DNA of 64,000 nucleotides from Saprospiraceae bacterium (GCA_020436785.1 JAGQXC010000396.1:9752-73751), one strand, 5' to 3'. Positions 1-5,024 are shown, numbered from the stretch's first letter. The notes: a model not told the origin generated them from the sequence alone. Made by a program: numbers and translations.

Positions 1-2346
1 TGCAGAAACTACCCGGAAATACAACAGGTCGGCATCGGTCACCGTCACGTTGTCCAGGATAAGATTGGTTGATAGACTGTCCTGCCAGGAGAATGATTGA
101 TCAAGGATATAGGTGGTATCCGTATTCCGTACCTTCAGTATCTGGACATTGATATCATCGGTCAACGGTTTCTTATCCAATTGACCTTCGATATGCAATT
201 GCCCGTTCAGGGGCAGGTGCAGAGATTGCAATCCCGTCACCAGGAAGTCCTCTGAAGACCGGTAAGTCATCCTTGACCTGGAATTTGCCGTCAACGTATC
301 ACCGGATACCGAGAAGTAGCTGATCACCGGATCCCAGTGAACCCGATCATAAGCTCCGTCAAAAACCGATTGAACCCGAAAATAGATCCGGTCACCCTTA
401 TTGACGCTCCGTAGTGAAACGTTTACCGGTTGCTTAATGGAATAATCATTTCCTTCGATGCGTGTGGACCAGAGTTCCTGCCCCCGTAACTGAATCGTAA
501 CCCGAACACCATCGTTGTGCATGTATTCGAGGGCGGTGGGATCCTCCAGCAATTGAACAGGAGCCTGGATATTTATCACGCCCGTGTCCGGTGCCTGCCA
601 CATCTTAACGACATCATGCAGCGGGAAATCATTGATCTTTTTTGCCAGTTCCAATGGATCCTGGACGAACAAATCAGGATCCGGTGGAGAGGTAGGATTG
701 ATTGGATTGGGCGTCGGGCTGCTGCTACGGGTGAATTCAGGATCTCCGTCTGCATTGATGTGATTGAAATAAACCACCCCGTTGTGAGCCACATCGATGA
801 GTTCATCCCCGTTAAAGTCTGAAAAATAGGTGGTCGCGCGGGACGAAGTGGTGGTATGTTCATAGCCTCCAAATACAGGTCCAACATGTCCTTCTGCCCC
901 AATGCTGGTGCTCGAGGCTTTGGTTAGAGAAAAATTGGTGATTCCTTTGACCATGCGTTCAGGACCAAATCCCAGGTGTTGATGAATCTGATTGGCCCGG
1001 TAGTATAGGCTGCCATTTTTTTGAAATACTTTATCCGGCAATCCGTCTCCATTGATGTCAACCAATGCCAGGAGTCCCCGGGATTCCGAACTGGCATAAG
1101 CAAAACTCCCTCCTGCCGAATTCAGCTTACTGGTGGGATCTCCCAAAGGACCTACCGTAACGACTGTGCTGCCACCGGTGTTATTGGAAGCATCTCCTCC
1201 CAATACCGATACCTCACCGTCAAAACCCGGGATCGGATTCACGATTTTACCCCGCACCTGATCATACGGTACATCCCAACTGGCGGCAGATAAATACCTC
1301 ATACGGTCCTGATCAGAGGCCACATCATCGTAATAAGTGAATTGGTGTTGATAAAACAATTGATCGTGGCCATCATATTGGGCTATGGCTTGGAGCAAGG
1401 TTTTACCAAAAGCTCCGGTTTGGTAATTTAAGCGGTAGGATCGGACCAAATCACCCTGATACGAGATATCTATCCGACGCAGTAAATCACCGCACACTTC
1501 CTTAAACCCCAGCCGGCAACCGATCATTTTGTCCTTGCGTGATACTTCGCCCAATTGCCGGTCACGGATAAACCGGACCTCGAACGGCCCCTCCTGATCT
1601 TCAAATCCGGTGTACGTAATGACATCAGGATAAAGGTACTTTCCTGGCACGCTTCCGTCAACCAGGCCAGGGTCGGCAACGGTGATGTATTTAAAATCAA
1701 TTGAATTCCCGTCCGGATCGCGAATCTCCTGGAGTGCCCAGCGTACGATGTGACCCTGATCGTCGGTTAAACTACTCCCGTCACCTGGGCGACCATAGAC
1801 GTATTTGTTCCCTTCTACATCCCAGACTTCCCACCAGTAATTGGAAGGCTGGCCACCATGGCGGATAATCCTCAAAAAATCGGTTTCTACCCGTGAATGA
1901 AAAATCTTCTCTACACTCCTGGGTTGGGCGGCATTGCGATGTGCCAATGGCGTTAATTGTTCACCATTGAGCAGATAGGATTCGGTTTCAAGATCGTTGT
2001 TAAAACGTGGAACTCCCCAGCGGGTATCGATTTCAATGGCCGGAATCATCAGATCCCATCCCCAACCGAGCCAGCCATTCTGATTTTCGCTATCGTAAGA
2101 GATGGTCAAATCCGGAGCCATGTCTTTTCTACCGGGAGGCAGGGTCAGTGGAAAGTCGAGGTGCGCACTTCCCTGCGCATTTCCTACCGGCGCCTGGATC
2201 AATTCAACCCCGTCGGCCGGATCGGCCAGATTATCCATTGAAAACAAGTCGGGATCAATGGATTCAGGCTTTAGGGACTGGCCGGAGAGAATTACCGCCA
2301 TGGCCAAAAAGTGCCCAACGAATAACCACGTAAAGTCCCTTTTCAT
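1..2346 (-). CDS. SpvB/TcaC N-terminal domain protein (Tc-toxin B-subunit-like / Rhs-type large secreted protein). Only the N-terminal 782 codons are in the window; the C-terminus runs off the left edge.
   Basis: My own reverse-strand translation is open from the ATG at 2346-2344 to position 1, checked codon by codon at 1-60 and 871-903. It is not in the ORF track because it has no in-window stop. It starts MKRDFTWLFVGHFLAMAVILSGQS (signal-like). It contains LPPGRKDMAPDLTISYDSENQNGWLGWGWDLMIPAIEIDTRWGVPRF (SpvB-domain hallmark) and FG-GAP/VCBS-like DINGDGLPD and DFNGDELID. Confidence 0.8.
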   Translation of the reverse strand, partial: MKRDFTWLFVGHFLAMAVILSGQSLKPESIDPDLFSMDNLADPADGVELIQAPVGNAQGSAHLDFPLTLPPGRKDMAPDLTISYDSENQNGWLGWGWDLMIPAIEIDTRWGVPRFNNDLETESYLLNGEQLTPLAHRNAAQPRSVEKIFHSRVETDFLRIIRHGGQPSNYWWEVWDVEGNKYVYGRPGDGSSLTDDQGHIVRWALQEIRDPDGNSIDFKYITVADPGLVDGSVPGKYLYPDVITYTGFEDQEGPFEVRFIRDRQLGEVSRKDKMIGCRLGFKEVCGDLLRRIDISYQGDLVRSYRLNYQTGAFGKTLLQAIAQYDGHDQLFYQHQFTYYDDVASDQDRMRYLSAASWDVPYDQVRGKIVNPIPGFDGEVSVLGGDASNNTGGSTVVTVGPLGDPTSKLNSAGGSFAYASSESRGLLALVDINGDGLPDKVFQKNGSLYYRANQIHQHLGFGPERMVKGITNFSLTKASSTSIGAEGHVGPVFGGYEHTTTSSRATTYFSDFNGDELIDVAHNGVVYFNHINADGDPEFTRSSSPTPNPINPTSPPDPDLFVQDPLELAKKINDFPLHDVVKMWQAPDTGVINIQAPVQLLEDPTALEYMHNDGVRVTIQLRGQELWSTRIEGNDYSIKQPVNVSLRSVNKGDRIYFRVQSVFDGAYDRVHWDPVISYFSVSGDTLTANSRSRMTYRSSEDFLVTGLQSLHLPLNGQLHIEGQLDKKPLTDDINVQILKVRNTDTTYILDQSFSWQDSLSTNLILDNVTVTDADLLYFRVVSA

Positions 2347-4283: not shown

Positions 4284-5024
4284 CTATTGATTAAATGGAA
4301 TGGCATAACCCAGCGTAACCATGAAAGCCATATTACGATTGGGGTTCTCGATAAAATTGTATCCATTGGCCTGGGTCTCGATCACATCGGACAAACCCAG
4401 TTGATAGCGGCCTTCCACCAGGAAGTTCTCCCATTCTAAACCTATTCCCAGAGCCAGGGAAAAGGCAGGCTTACCTTTTAAAACTTCTCTCAGGTTCTGC
4501 TGAATCTGTAAATCCTGGCCGATAACCTCGGTATTGGACGTATACCGGATGGCATTACTGGTAATGTTGACCCCAAGTTGAGGACCTACGCCAATGTGGA
4601 AACCGGATAATGCGTCTGAAACTTCACTCAGCGGGTAAACTTTGAAATAAGGGGTGAAATTGATGTATTGATAATTAAAGTCCATCGAATAATGCAATCC
4701 CTTGACATCCTCGTAATGGAAAGTCCCTCCTGACATGGAATAAAGCATCTCCGGCTGGATCGCAATAAACGTGTTCTCGAATTGCATATAAAAAAAGATC
4801 CCGGCGGCGGCTCCCCATTGATTGCTCAGGCGGGTAGAGTACGTCTCCTCCGGGAACACCGGGCGAATGATGGTGGTCTTTATTTCATCAATGCCCGAAT
4901 AAGTCACCCCCCCTTTCAGTCCGAAATAAGAACCTTCCGCATTGATGAGTTGGGCGGACAGCGAGGTGGTGGTGAACAAAGTCAGTAAGAAAATTAGATT
5001 CTTCATATGCGCCAGTACTTTCAT
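4284..5024 (-). CDS. Small outer-membrane beta-barrel protein (PorT-like / OMP_b-brl_2-type porin family)
   Basis: 246-aa ORF. Signal sequence ...NLIFLLTLFTTTSLSAQ. Alternating aromatic/glycine beta-strand pattern, with a C-terminal ...VTLGYAIPF-type last strand. The real start may be the second Met at 5006. It lies 9 nt upstream of the next gene. Confidence 0.6.
   Translation of the reverse strand: MKVLAHMKNLIFLLTLFTTTSLSAQLINAEGSYFGLKGGVTYSGIDEIKTTIIRPVFPEETYSTRLSNQWGAAAGIFFYMQFENTFIAIQPEMLYSMSGGTFHYEDVKGLHYSMDFNYQYINFTPYFKVYPLSEVSDALSGFHIGVGPQLGVNITSNAIRYTSNTEVIGQDLQIQQNLREVLKGKPAFSLALGIGLEWENFLVEGRYQLGLSDVIETQANGYNFIENPNRNMAFMVTLGYAIPFNQ

Follow-up and report, generated by a model that had tools for sequence, protein, structure and literature searches.

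The three-gene locus

Three minus-strand genes were found tightly packed at one end of the window, the whole 64-kb stretch of DNA that was analysed. They encode a small outer-membrane beta-barrel protein (hereafter the barrel), a 643-residue protein (the partner) and the beginning of a very large toxin (the giant), whose frame is cut by the window edge (Table 1). The window therefore carries the 5' two and a third genes of a three-gene module. The close packing described in the initial annotation was re-found from the ORF coordinates. A 9-nt spacer (4275-4283) separates the barrel gene from the partner gene, and the ATGA at the next junction contains both the partner stop codon (2343-2345) and the ATG of the giant gene (2344-2346). 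Identical 4-nt stop/start overlaps were observed in loci L001, L006, L019 and L085, a 1-nt gap was observed in L024 and L030, and in 32 of 36 loci no more than 100 nt separate partner and giant. The region between fur and the barrel gene is likely to be the promoter of the three-gene unit, because no other sizeable non-coding gap is present. A scan of this region for sigma-70-type promoters, which does not cover Bacteroidota promoters, gave no match above shuffled expectation.

Table 1 Coordinates of the features discussed in the text (a slash marks the predicted cleavage position)
Feature	Position	Strand	Basis or remarks
Giant fused TcB-TcC-like polymorphic toxin, first 782 codons, cut by window edge	1..2346	-	Open frame
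Family-specific beta-sandwich insert, start (aa ~577 onward)	1..618	-	AF2, Foldseek, motif layout
Beta-propeller, first two FG-GAP-like blades (Ca-binding-type motifs)	793..1059	-	Invariant motif residues
SpvB domain, aa 57-222	1681..2178	-	Pfam PF03534, E 2.9e-23
Predicted Sec signal peptide of giant protein, MKRDFTWLFVGHFLAMAVILSG/QS	2260..2346	-	Read from sequence
ATGA stop/start overlap, partner gene and giant toxin gene	2343..2346	-	Read from ORF coordinates
Partner protein, 643 aa	2343..4274	-	DUF8202, Ig-like middle, T9SS type-A CTD
Partner T9SS type-A C-terminal sorting domain (CTD), aa 568-643, LYPNLIAPGGTFRL...GTYRIQ...KIVVQ	2346..2573	-	TIGR04183, conserved tail
Small outer-membrane beta-barrel protein, 246 aa	4284..5024	-	Pfam OMP_b-brl_2 PF13568, E 2.3e-15, 57.5 bits
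Intergenic region between fur and barrel gene, 238 nt	5025..5262	-	Sole sizeable non-coding gap
porU (32160-35675) and porV (35786-36949), T9SS sortase and outer-membrane shuttle	32160..36949	+	NCBIfam-type models

The giant toxin

The third frame had been described as open for 782 codons with a signal-like N-terminus and an SpvB domain, and this description was borne out by its translation, which contained no stop codon before running off the window edge, and by the Pfam match to SpvB. A chance ORF is not a credible explanation, because homologues of the frame were detected down to E 1e-197 and a contig with 99.3% identity carries the intact gene. Almost all full-length giant homologues listed begin with a hydrophobic leader similar to the predicted signal peptide. 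The SpvB-hallmark peptide quoted earlier, TISYDSENQNGWLGWGWDLMIPAIEIDTRWGVPRF, was found in the window frame. A profile of the giant family aligned to PDB entries for TcdB2 (residues 34-236), YenB and SpvB, with the PDB sequence matches of this profile limited to the SpvB part. Foldseek searches with the N-terminus of the giant returned YenB, TcdB2 and TcdB1 at E about 1e-14 and probability 1.0, with YenB and TcdB2 at the top. The initial annotation also listed FG-GAP/VCBS-like DxNGDGxxD repeats. The motif DxNGDxxxD is indeed present twice, as DINGDGLPD (aa 430-438) and as DFNGDELID (aa 510-518), with no variation at either site in the family alignment (A1); the Pfam FG-GAP match stayed below threshold in the 782-aa fragment. 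An insert of ~550-600 aa of beta-sandwich modules with recurring strands (GDRIYFRVQS and ADLLYFRVVS) interrupts the propeller. The AlphaFold2 (AF2) model of this insert is all-beta with a pLDDT of 70-88, and Foldseek matched it to tandem CBM51 modules at probability 0.99 and a low TM.

The full-length protein was analysed in L085, a contig from a metagenome-assembled genome with 99.3% DNA identity to the window, and in L001, a 65%-identical ortholog. The intact giant comprises 2,810 aa in L085, where 775 of the 782 residues of the window frame are identical, and 2,811 aa in L001. The part of the protein that the initial annotation had placed beyond the window edge was recovered in both contigs, where an RHS/YD shell is followed by an Rhs core and, at the C-terminus, by a toxin. 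In L085 the order is signal peptide, SpvB, beta-propeller split by the ~600-aa beta-sandwich insert, TcdB_midN, RHS/YD shell, Rhs core (DPDG) and Peptidase_M91. The L085 product matched SpvB, FG-GAP_3 (faintly), TcdB_toxin_midN, RHS_repeat, TEN_YD-shell and Peptidase_M91, and its Rhs core reads ...NNPLKYADPDGN (outside the window). Beyond the insert, three propeller motifs were found by regular expression at aa 1210, 1285 and 1371, and a further one, DMNGDRYPD at about aa 1130, was spotted by eye. The corresponding domains in L001 are SpvB, FG-GAP (FG-GAP_3, 31.2 bits), midN (59.2 bits), RHS (RHS_repeat, E 1.3e-16), Rhs_assc_core (TIGR03696, E 1.1e-17) and M91, in which the HExxH motif could be read. 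No immunity gene follows the giant in L001, where purA begins after 10 nt. The window ends at residue 782, and for the window strain we infer the M91 tip and the missing immunity gene from these near-identical and orthologous contigs.

The giant belongs to a known class of polymorphic toxins, "TcdB/TcaC", and has the form of a TcB-TcC-like fusion. It is encoded as a single ORF of 2,750-3,535 aa in 60+ loci, and an Rhs core was present in all 69 family members analysed, most of them with a DPxG-type C-terminal motif. The tail that follows the core measures 44-581 aa (mostly about 120-400 aa) and carries GH-E, HNH, AHH, WHH, Colicin-DNase, EndoU, TNT, Colicin_M, deaminase, PT-HINT or Peptidase_M91 domains in different members. 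This variety of domains identifies the group as a polymorphic toxin family. Mean column identity in the C-termini is about 10%, and their Pfam matches spread over 24 families of toxins or pre-toxins. As for immunity genes, the L001 clade offers no candidate, and many of the other loci contain a tightly linked small ORF, one of which encodes ankyrin repeats and one an LRR protein, the others being unannotated. Por_Secre_tail gave no match among 66 giant C-termini.

The partner and barrel proteins

The partner begins with a leader, MRRFIYIAVFIGACFLPART/QQ, read from the sequence as a Sec signal peptide with cleavage likely before Q21, a residue that is nearly invariant among the homologues. The conserved DUF8202 region, with the motif ...ERQRVDSYLAIKYG..., lies in the N-terminal part. 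The window partner itself gave no Pfam match at E <= 0.01; PF26628 (DUF8202) is the sole domain precomputed for P0062, a protein identical to it. The AF2 model is all-beta and multi-domain with a pLDDT of 74, and Foldseek matched it only to strings of Ig/FN3 domains. The CTD of the window partner scored 21.3 bits against TIGR04183, just below the 23-bit cutoff, and the L001 ortholog scored 33.6 bits. Among the partner family, 36 of 37 members matched this model at E <= 0.01 (best E 4.7e-16), and the conserved CTD tail is visible in 36 of 36 partners. By its CTD the partner family clearly belongs with T9SS type-A cargo, with the window copy marginal by score alone. Of the earlier description of a T9SS-sorted LamG/SprB-repeat protein, the type-A CTD is thus retained, while neither LamG nor SprB repeats were detected and the domain is instead DUF8202. 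SprB (PF13573) was seen in one distant match only (P0080). Outside toxin loci, more distant DUF8202 proteins are encoded beside CLIPPER-repeat or tail-fibre-like genes.

The barrel has a signal peptide with an A/Q cleavage-type site, and would be 240 aa long if Met7 is the start, as in the NCBI annotation of a 99%-identical copy. It had been called PorT-like. The barrel assignment holds, but the PorT label has only the generic PF13568 match and NCBI automatic names behind it, close homologues being named 'porin family protein' or 'PorT family protein'. The best NCBIfam match was to the TDE1717 family, at a score far under the cutoff of that model.

T9SS genes were identified elsewhere in the window. 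PorU (NF033707, 1139 bits against a cutoff of 420) and PorV (NF033710, 443 bits against a cutoff of 250) were recognized, and PorP/SprF and GldJ are likewise encoded. The porU and porV genes lie 27 kb away, outside the operon, and provide genomic context as the machinery that the partner CTD would use.

Conservation of the locus and search for TcA

The linkage of the three genes, proposed initially from a single locus, recurs in related genomes. In each of the 36 Bacteroidota loci that could be assessed, the gene immediately upstream of the giant encodes a DUF8202-CTD protein; none of the 41 loci from outside Bacteroidota has such a neighbour, and the module is limited to Bacteroidota among the loci sampled. 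The pair-bearing loci come from Saprospiria, Chitinophagia, Cytophagia, Flavobacteriia and Bacteroidia, with a mean partner identity of only about 29%. Reciprocal searches from the partner homologues P0063, P0064 and P0067 again found a giant gene downstream. In 21 Bacteroidota loci the partner gene has a barrel homologue upstream of it; ~13 loci (about a third) have none, and those checked had no substitute barrel. The flanking genes differ wholly between loci, and the pair, usually the trio, remains intact and tightly spaced. The giant loci share no conserved gene for any other exporter. Pairwise identities of partners and giants correlate with r = 0.87, a value confounded by shared phylogeny. 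In a neighbor-joining tree of the giants every non-Bacteroidota sequence falls in one clade, with the Bacteroidota on one side of a single split, so the 36 pairs represent long retention of one ancestral arrangement and not 36 independent events. Homologues from the monoderm Actinomycetota have a signal peptide only and no partner, a pattern that fits with the partner solving an outer-membrane problem.

The initial annotation noted no TcA-like gene, and a wider search agreed. None was found in the 64-kb window, which has no other ORF of more than 1,171 aa and whose large ORFs, on scanning, proved to be PorU, a histidine kinase and the like. None was found in the 10-kb flanks of L001, which contain purA, fur and relA, or among seven large neighbours from seven related loci.

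Relation to known toxin systems

In Tc toxins, TcB (~1,480 aa) and TcC (~950 aa) are separate polypeptides. From the N-terminal SpvB domain through the FG-GAP propeller, TcdB_toxin_midN and the RHS/YD cocoon to the Rhs core, whose autoprotease motif is P....DPxG, and the hypervariable toxin at the C-terminus, the giant has the parts of the BC subcomplex of these toxins (Photorhabdus TcdB2-TccC3 and Yersinia entomophaga YenB-YenC). Unlike the BC subcomplex, it is one 2,810-aa chain with a Sec signal peptide and an atypical, split propeller; its locus, in the window and in related genomes, has conserved T9SS-cargo and barrel genes upstream, and no TcA was found nearby. The toxin domains of many members of the family are of antibacterial type. 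Fusions of B and C have been described before, though they are uncommon (PMC7861908).

Those passages of Zhang, de Souza, Anantharaman, Iyer & Aravind 2012 that treat the 'TcdB/TcaC' class (PMC3482391) describe the same combination of signal peptide, SpvB, integrin-like propeller, RHS repeats and variable toxin in bacteroidetes, actinobacteria, proteobacteria and others. They include HopH1-type metallopeptidase tips without immunity genes, ascribe export to a generic 'TcdB/TcaC pathway', and contain no DUF8202/T9SS-CTD partner or barrel. The toxin class is therefore already known; the conserved T9SS-cargo partner is undescribed in the literature searched, and its nearest precedent is found in the TANFOR toxins (Jana, Salomon & Bosis 2020; PMC7073777). 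These are also large, CTD-less Bacteroidetes proteins with a Sec signal, encoded directly downstream of T9SS cargo genes, and T9SS-linked export was hypothesised for them, so that the idea of T9SS use by a CTD-less Bacteroidetes polymorphic toxin beside T9SS cargo predates the present analysis. The two groups differ in their N-termini (TANFOR versus the SpvB/RHS of the giant) and in the neighbouring cargo (SprB repeats versus DUF8202), and the TANFOR-cargo association is a statistical enrichment (PMC7073777) whereas giant and partner form a fixed pair. The TANFOR model gave no match on the full-length L001 giant in Pfam and NCBIfam scans.

The T6SS Rhs effectors (for example Tse5, and RhsA with EagR/VgrG) resemble the giant in their Rhs cocoon, Rhs core (E 3.5e-12 between the giant core and PDB Tse5) and polymorphic tip, and need the product of a small accessory gene upstream to connect the cocoon with a secretion machine. 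The giant differs from them in having no PAAR or VgrG and an SpvB/propeller N-terminus with a Sec signal, and its accessory is a predicted T9SS substrate. Mosquito SGS proteins (SGS4, PDB 9on3; E 1.8e-10 to the giant Rhs core) and teneurins are likewise very large single-chain YD shells (about 3,000 aa) with extra lectin/propeller-type domains, and function with no TcA, but they are eukaryotic, are not polymorphic toxins, and are alike in sequence in the core region only.

A possible export route and its alternatives

Conservation of the trio across Bacteroidota suggests an undescribed mode of export or display of Tc/Rhs toxins without a TcA injector. All three proteins would pass the inner membrane via Sec. 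In the roughly 300-kDa giant, SpvB and the split propeller would cap the RHS/YD cocoon, and the aspartyl autoprotease of the Rhs core (…YADPDG/N) would free the encapsulated C-terminal toxin, in this lineage probably an NleD/HopH1-like Peptidase_M91 zinc protease. The T9SS (PorV, PorU) would recognise the partner by its CTD, translocate it and attach it to the cell surface, and the toxin, which has no CTD of its own, may be exported along with the partner or captured by it for surface display. The partner would thereby stand in for TcA as the toxin's way out, and the barrel, which is optional, may serve in membrane anchoring or assembly. This reading draws on the observed gene order and coupling, the domain architectures, the polymorphic C-termini, the phylum-wide pair and its absence outside Bacteroidota, and the T9SS genes; from these we infer a physical interaction, a T9SS dependence of the toxin and a target. 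A T9SS-dependent route for a Tc/Rhs toxin was already put forward in the initial annotation, of which the anatomy, the linkage and the lack of a nearby TcA stand, the route itself staying conjectural. Piggy-back export is physically uncertain, since a folded BC cocoon is bulky compared with the cargo known to pass the T9SS translocon. The loci that have no barrel and the marginally sub-cutoff CTD of the window partner are points against the T9SS-partner reading. Taken whole, partner-linked T9SS display or export of the CTD-less giant seems to us evenly balanced between right and wrong.

A less probable explanation, though one to be taken seriously, is that the partner serves for target contact, as an adhesin or receptor-binding protein that is co-expressed with the toxin and displayed by the T9SS, while the toxin itself exits by lysis, in outer-membrane vesicles or through some unknown exporter, not bound to the partner during export. 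The string of beta-sandwich/Ig-like domains in the partner model is typical of adhesins, and the non-toxin contexts of remote DUF8202 proteins also speak for this role. The giant has putative binding modules of its own in the CBM51-like insert, and may be self-sufficient, as it apparently is in Actinomycetota. Against this, strict and often overlapping adjacency, kept at such low partner identity, speaks for stoichiometric co-production and a closer link than a generic adhesin would need, and a periplasmic protein of ~300 kDa in a diderm requires an exit, for which the loci conserve no other exporter gene. It is quite improbable that barrel and partner form a dedicated, T9SS-independent outer-membrane translocator or anchor in which the 'CTD' is merely a beta-sandwich interaction module. 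The barrel gene does lie beside the pair in 21 loci and the window CTD is under threshold, but a barrel of ~240 aa is far too small for the passage of a 300-kDa protein and is missing from about a third of the loci; moreover, the curated T9SS type-A model was matched by 36 of 37 partners (best E 4.7e-16), and the module is confined to a T9SS-bearing phylum.

A conventional Tc (ABC) toxin, with TcA encoded elsewhere in the genome and unrelated upstream genes, would account for the BC hallmarks (SpvB, TcdB_midN, RHS shell and Rhs core), and orphan TcC genes and BC fusions far from tcA are known (PMC7861908). This explanation is scarcely credible given that the upstream partner is conserved and not random, and that the propeller, which binds TcA in canonical TcB, is broken by the ~600-aa insert. 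Most C-terminal toxins in the family are antibacterial nucleases of classic type, Colicin M or TNT, unlike insecticidal Tc cargo, and the search for TcA was negative at the loci covered, namely the window, the L001 flanks and the large neighbours at related loci. Equally hard to credit is a historical accident, in which one ancestral arrangement persisted with no functional coupling. The one non-Bacteroidota clade on the neighbor-joining tree makes a single Bacteroidota origin possible, as this explanation needs, but neutral synteny in bacteria is not so long-lived, and the pair or trio has stayed intact and tightly spaced across class-level divergence despite wholly different flanks.

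Organization of the three-gene unit

Three minus-strand genes at the left edge of the window form a tightly coupled unit, with the anatomy that the initial annotation had described: the ORFs, the 9-nt gap between the barrel and partner genes (4275-4283), the open third frame and its SpvB peptide were all recovered. The ATG of this third gene, which encodes a giant toxin, lies at 2344-2346 and overlaps the TGA of the partner gene, forming ATGA at 2343-2346. The giant fragment contains the SpvB hallmark peptide, an SpvB domain at residues 57-222 (Pfam, E 3e-23) and two DxNGDxxxD motifs at residues 430 and 510. 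The barrel matches OMP_b-brl_2 (PF13568, E 2e-15), and its previous designation as PorT is unsupported; PF13568 was not mentioned together with PorT in the literature searched.

Coordinates of the toxin module and type IX secretion system (T9SS) genes in the window, and of domains in the full-length giant of the related locus L001
Feature	Location	Strand	Details
Barrel gene	4284..5024	-	complete ORF, 246 aa
Partner gene	2343..4274	-	complete ORF, 643 aa
Giant gene, 5' part	1-2346	-	782 sense codons, stop-free, exits left window edge
GldJ	29482-30981	-	387 bits vs 383 cutoff (GldJ_short model)
PorP/SprF-family protein	31054-32067	-	212 bits vs 91 cutoff
PorU sortase	32160-35675	+	1139 bits; C25 peptidase domain also found
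PorV	35786-36949	+	443 bits
SpvB	L001 giant residues 58-229		
FG-GAP	L001 giant residues 1279-1318		
TcdB_toxin_midN	L001 giant residues 1371-1480		
RHS/YD repeats	L001 giant, from ~1870		
Rhs_assc_core	L001 giant residues 2532-2610		
Peptidase_M91	L001 giant residues 2614-2724		with HELGH

A scan of window positions 1-5800 for sigma-70 promoters and intrinsic terminators gave nothing above shuffled expectation. On the minus strand at 2403-2430, inside the region of the partner gene that codes for the C-terminal sorting domain (CTD) and ~60-85 nt upstream of the giant start codon, lies a longer stem that includes a GC-rich hairpin with 11 perfect base pairs (CCAACCGGGGT...ACCCCGGTTGG); the 150-nt partner/giant junction has an MFE z-score of -4.8 against simple mononucleotide shuffles. 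The hairpin is kept with G-U-compatible changes in the related loci L085, L086 and L001 (z -4.4, -3.7 and -2.2) and is absent from the distant loci L006, L019 and L024. It coincides with a conserved peptide, QPG...PGW, and may exist only as a by-product of coding; a role in modulating translational coupling into the giant gene is also conceivable.

The module is flanked upstream by tig, relA/spoT and fur (window 5263-9808; also L001, L081 and L085-L088) and, in L001, downstream by purA, in an order conserved at 65-99% identity in the Lewinellaceae/Saprospiraceae lineage. Because it sits amid housekeeping genes in conserved order, the module looks vertically inherited in this lineage rather than carried on a mobile island.

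The full-length toxin

No exact match to the partner, or to the identical database protein P0062, was found, and JGI metagenome contigs scanned with exact 50-mers gave none. The full gene was reached through a barrel homologue (P0085, 99% identical) on contig L085 (GCA_041392685.1, JAWKLP010000027.1), which is 99.3% identical to the window over 14 kb. The third gene of L085 encodes 2,810 aa, matches the window fragment at 775 of the 782 N-terminal residues, and carries precomputed Pfam assignments to SpvB, FG-GAP_3, TcdB_toxin_midN, RHS_repeat, TEN_YD-shell and Peptidase_M91. The contig DNA covers residues 1-2,687 free of stops, including the Rhs core (...NNPLKYADPDGN), and ends there, 123 aa short of the C-terminus; the downstream flank was judged from L001, a Lewinellaceae MAG locus with a 65%-identical ortholog of 2,811 aa. 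Gene order in L001 is tig, relA/spoT, fur, barrel, partner, giant, with the same flanks as in the window lineage. The Tc/Rhs-type toxin proposed from the N-terminal fragment was thus borne out in its full-length relatives, the L085 and L001 giants carrying RHS repeats, an Rhs core and an M91 peptidase. Three more contigs (barrel identity 84%) contain the same trio, with giants of 2,808-2,809 aa and M91 at the end. In L001, purA starts 10 nt after the giant gene, so a candidate immunity gene is absent there.

Propeller-type DxNGD motifs in the L085 giant occur at residues 430 and 510 and then at ~1130, 1210, 1285 and 1371. The gap between 510 and ~1130 indicates that the propeller, unlike that of canonical TcB, is interrupted by an insert of ~550-600 aa, which holds three similar beta-sandwich signatures. 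The AF2 model of the 782-aa fragment was mediocre (pLDDT 64); its ten best Foldseek matches were nine TcB chains (YenB, TcdB2-TccC3 and TcdB1; E 1e-12 to 1e-14, probability 1.0) and, in tenth place, the SpvB N-terminal domain, and the C-terminal third of the model resembles tandem CBM51 beta-sandwiches. Sequence alignment of the fragment to TcdB2, YenB and SpvB from the PDB covered the SpvB part only.

The giant toxin family

Species-representative genomes were scanned and yielded >523 relatives; the 80 best loci were taken forward. An Rhs core was present in all 69 giants analysed, which span 2,540-3,535 aa where complete. In most, a DPxG-type motif closes the core and is followed by an unrelated C-terminus of 44-581 aa, mostly ~120-400. 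Pfam assignments among 66 such C-termini included PT-HINT (11 members), DUF4329/Tox-JAB-2 (3), Peptidase_M91 (3), GH-E, HNH, AHH, WHH, Colicin-DNase, EndoU, TNT, Colicin_M, deaminase and Ntox10, which is the classic polymorphic-toxin set; none of the 66 matched Por_Secre_tail. Gene three of the module encodes a fused BC-type Rhs cocoon that is predicted to be Sec-targeted and whose tip is polymorphic. At many loci a small ORF is tightly linked downstream, one with ankyrin repeats, one with LRR and all the others unannotated.

The architecture is that of the "TcdB/TcaC" class, which Zhang et al. 2012 (PMC3482391) define by a signal peptide, SpvB, an integrin-like propeller and RHS, list in bacteroidetes, actinobacteria, proteobacteria and other phyla, and describe as including HopH1-type metallopeptidase tips without immunity proteins. 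The giant itself therefore belongs to a known kind.

Most homologues, those in the clade of the window excepted, have an additional N-terminal region before SpvB with ...HFTDMING... (consensus of alignment A1), 200-420 aa long in the giants of L009, L010, L013, L017, L021-L031 and others, and 700-830 aa in the proteobacterial homologues L033, L034, L047 and L054. Pfam gave only sub-threshold F5/8-type-C and DUF7383 matches in the proteobacterial extensions. HFTDMING was considered as the ZU5 autopeptidase site that Zhang et al. 2012 (PMC3482391) described on SpvB-RHS toxins, and this was set aside as resemblance only, no ZU5 model matching the three extensions scanned. Locus L062 (Saccharothrix) has tandem giant Rhs-core genes (3-9014 and 9767-18742). 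The L074 giant is in two pieces, one ORF of 1,410 aa and another of 1,813 aa with the Rhs core (8750-12982 and 14569-20010), which may reflect a disruption or an assembly error.

The partner protein

The second product of the module is a predicted T9SS type-A cargo. Its CTD, at residues 568-643, scores 21.3 bits against TIGR04183, just below the cutoff of 23; across the partner family the model is matched by 36 of 37 members (best E 4.7e-16), and a YPNP...G.Y...KLIV tail ends all 36 partners. The protein had no match in the local Pfam copy, and P0062 bears DUF8202 (PF26628), which the literature searched does not mention. The LamG and SprB-repeat labels of the initial annotation are unsupported, as neither model matches the partner. 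AF2 predicted an all-beta multi-domain rod (pLDDT 74). Foldseek searches with this model were discarded as a functional lead, having returned only generic Ig/FN3 arrays with TM < 0.2, Aureispira GhpA fragments included.

Distant DUF8202 proteins (Flavobacterium, 912 aa; Chryseobacterium, 987 aa) adjoin tail-fibre-like PTL_trimer/Peptidase_S74 genes (L089, 6606-13560; L090; L091, 8001-11492), the domain is fused with PTL_trimer in database protein P0075, and the homologue in L082 precedes a run of CLIPPER-repeat gene fragments. DUF8202 may thus pair with large surface or fibre proteins of various kinds, Rhs toxins among them, and its position beside or fused to PTL_trimer hints that it may be a general adaptor domain for display of CTD-less surface proteins.

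Linkage of partner and giant

Linkage was assessed by Python ORF calling and BLAST/HMM searches on the best 80 loci. A partner homologue lies directly upstream of the giant on the same strand in 36 of 36 Bacteroidota loci with upstream DNA (three more, cut at the giant gene, fall outside this set), covering Lewinellaceae/Saprospiraceae, Chitinophagaceae, Runella, Pontibacter, Cyclobacteriaceae, Tenacibaculum and Marinilabiliaceae. None was found beside the giant in 41 loci of other phyla, mostly Actinomycetota but also Proteobacteria, Desulfobacterota, Myxococcota and Chloroflexota. Among the loci sampled, the pair is confined to the T9SS-bearing phylum and never missing there, whereas monoderm relatives of the giant have a signal peptide only. 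The gap is <=100 nt in 32 of the 36, with a 4-nt overlap or 1-nt gap in six, and 21 loci have a barrel homologue ahead of the partner; the three-gene linkage seen in the window is accordingly conserved, for the partner without exception. Starting in reverse from the partner homologues P0063, P0064 and P0067 again led to a giant gene downstream. In lineages lacking a separate partner, hmmsearch with the partner profile detected no partner-giant fusion even at E 10.

Mean pairwise identity is ~29% for partners and 47% for giant N-termini. The two sets of identities correlate (mirror-tree r = 0.87), which is weak evidence since common phylogeny alone can yield such a correlation. In an NJ tree all non-Bacteroidota sequences form one clade, with Bacteroidota giants on one side of a single split; the linkage is thus best read, from these sequences, as one ancient arrangement retained through class-level divergence and not as many independent events.

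Proposed export of the toxin and alternative explanations

A T9SS/gliding cluster (29482-36949) lies ~27 kb from the toxin module, and the organism therefore has a T9SS. A T9SS route for the toxin, as first suggested from the window, is now a well-motivated hypothesis. We infer, with about even confidence in the reading as a whole, that the partner links the CTD-less toxin to the T9SS, whether by carrying it out or by capturing and displaying it on the cell surface. The barrel would be an optional anchor or assembly factor, the Rhs-core autoprotease would free the encapsulated M91 protease for release upon target contact, and the roles of TcA, the injector of canonical Tc toxins, would be assumed by the propeller insert and possibly also by the partner. 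In a more specific form, which is tentative and rather doubtful, the DUF8202-CTD protein would be a dedicated T9SS carrier that binds the CTD-less ~300-kDa cocoon in the periplasm and exports it through the T9SS or installs it beyond the outer membrane. If this is true, type IX secretion would include a piggy-back mode, toxin delivery would bypass TcA, and the T9SS would serve to deploy weapons throughout Bacteroidota. For the M91 tip, the lack of an accompanying immunity gene fits either a non-self (e.g. eukaryotic) target or immunity encoded elsewhere.

The main rival, which we consider unlikely, takes the partner as merely a co-expressed T9SS adhesin and lets the toxin exit by lysis, vesicles or an unknown route. 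Of the lesser rivals, neutral synteny is disfavoured: apart from the pair itself, flanking genes differ completely between loci, which argues for selection on the partner-giant adjacency. A TcA encoded elsewhere is disfavoured as far as the window and related loci show: the remaining ORFs of the window reach 1,171 aa at most, and seven large neighbours of giants in seven other loci encode proteases, PKS, regulators and the like, with no TcA among them, in keeping with the earlier remark that none is visible here. A T9SS-independent translocator formed by barrel and partner is also disfavoured; among the upstream ORFs checked in loci lacking a PF13568 gene, no substitute barrel was found.

Precedents and significance

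Both the toxin class and the secretion system are known. BC fusions and orphan TcC genes have been acknowledged, unstudied (PMC7861908). The closest conceptual precedent is the TANFOR system, in which T9SS cargo genes (SprB repeats and CTD) are enriched beside polymorphic toxins and T9SS export was hypothesised (Jana et al. 2020, PMC7073777); its toxin class and partner differ from those of the SpvB-RHS/DUF8202 module, and given this precedent specialists should be only moderately surprised. The literature searched contains no description of an SpvB-RHS/T9SS-cargo module, so that the obligate partner and the architecture shared by the module throughout the phylum count as new; remodelling of the propeller is a further difference.

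SpvB-RHS ("TcdB/TcaC-type") polymorphic toxins are widespread, the subfamily of the window giant alone accounting for >520 loci in species-representative genomes. To our knowledge, it has never been established how such toxins leave a diderm cell without TcA, and we know of a T9SS role in toxin-mediated antagonism being hypothesised for TANFOR toxins only. The fixed pair of T9SS-tagged DUF8202 protein and giant offers a genetically testable handle on both matters, because cultivable strains carry it, among them Niastella yeongjuensis DSM 17621, Runella limosa DSM 17973, Runella defluvii DSM 17976, Pontibacter anaerobius M82, Tenacibaculum sp. TC6 and Lewinella sp. W8. It also provides the first functional context for DUF8202, and a BC-cocoon variant with a large insert that reshapes the TcA-binding propeller, which bears on the engineering of Tc cocoons for protein delivery.

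Locus L054 (Marinobacter MAG, 2619-7287) has, upstream of its proteobacterial giant homologue, a gene for a 752-aa TPR-STN-secretin protein, a pseudopilin-like gene (N_methyl and T2SSG) and three small ORFs; this single example may represent a different, lineage-specific outer-membrane export partner. The Rhs core of the L001 giant (2508-2611) matches the mosquito salivary protein SGS4 (PDB 9on3_A, 3,398 aa; E 1.8e-10). As a giant YD-shell protein from a eukaryote, SGS4 may be useful for structural comparison with cocoons that work without TcA.
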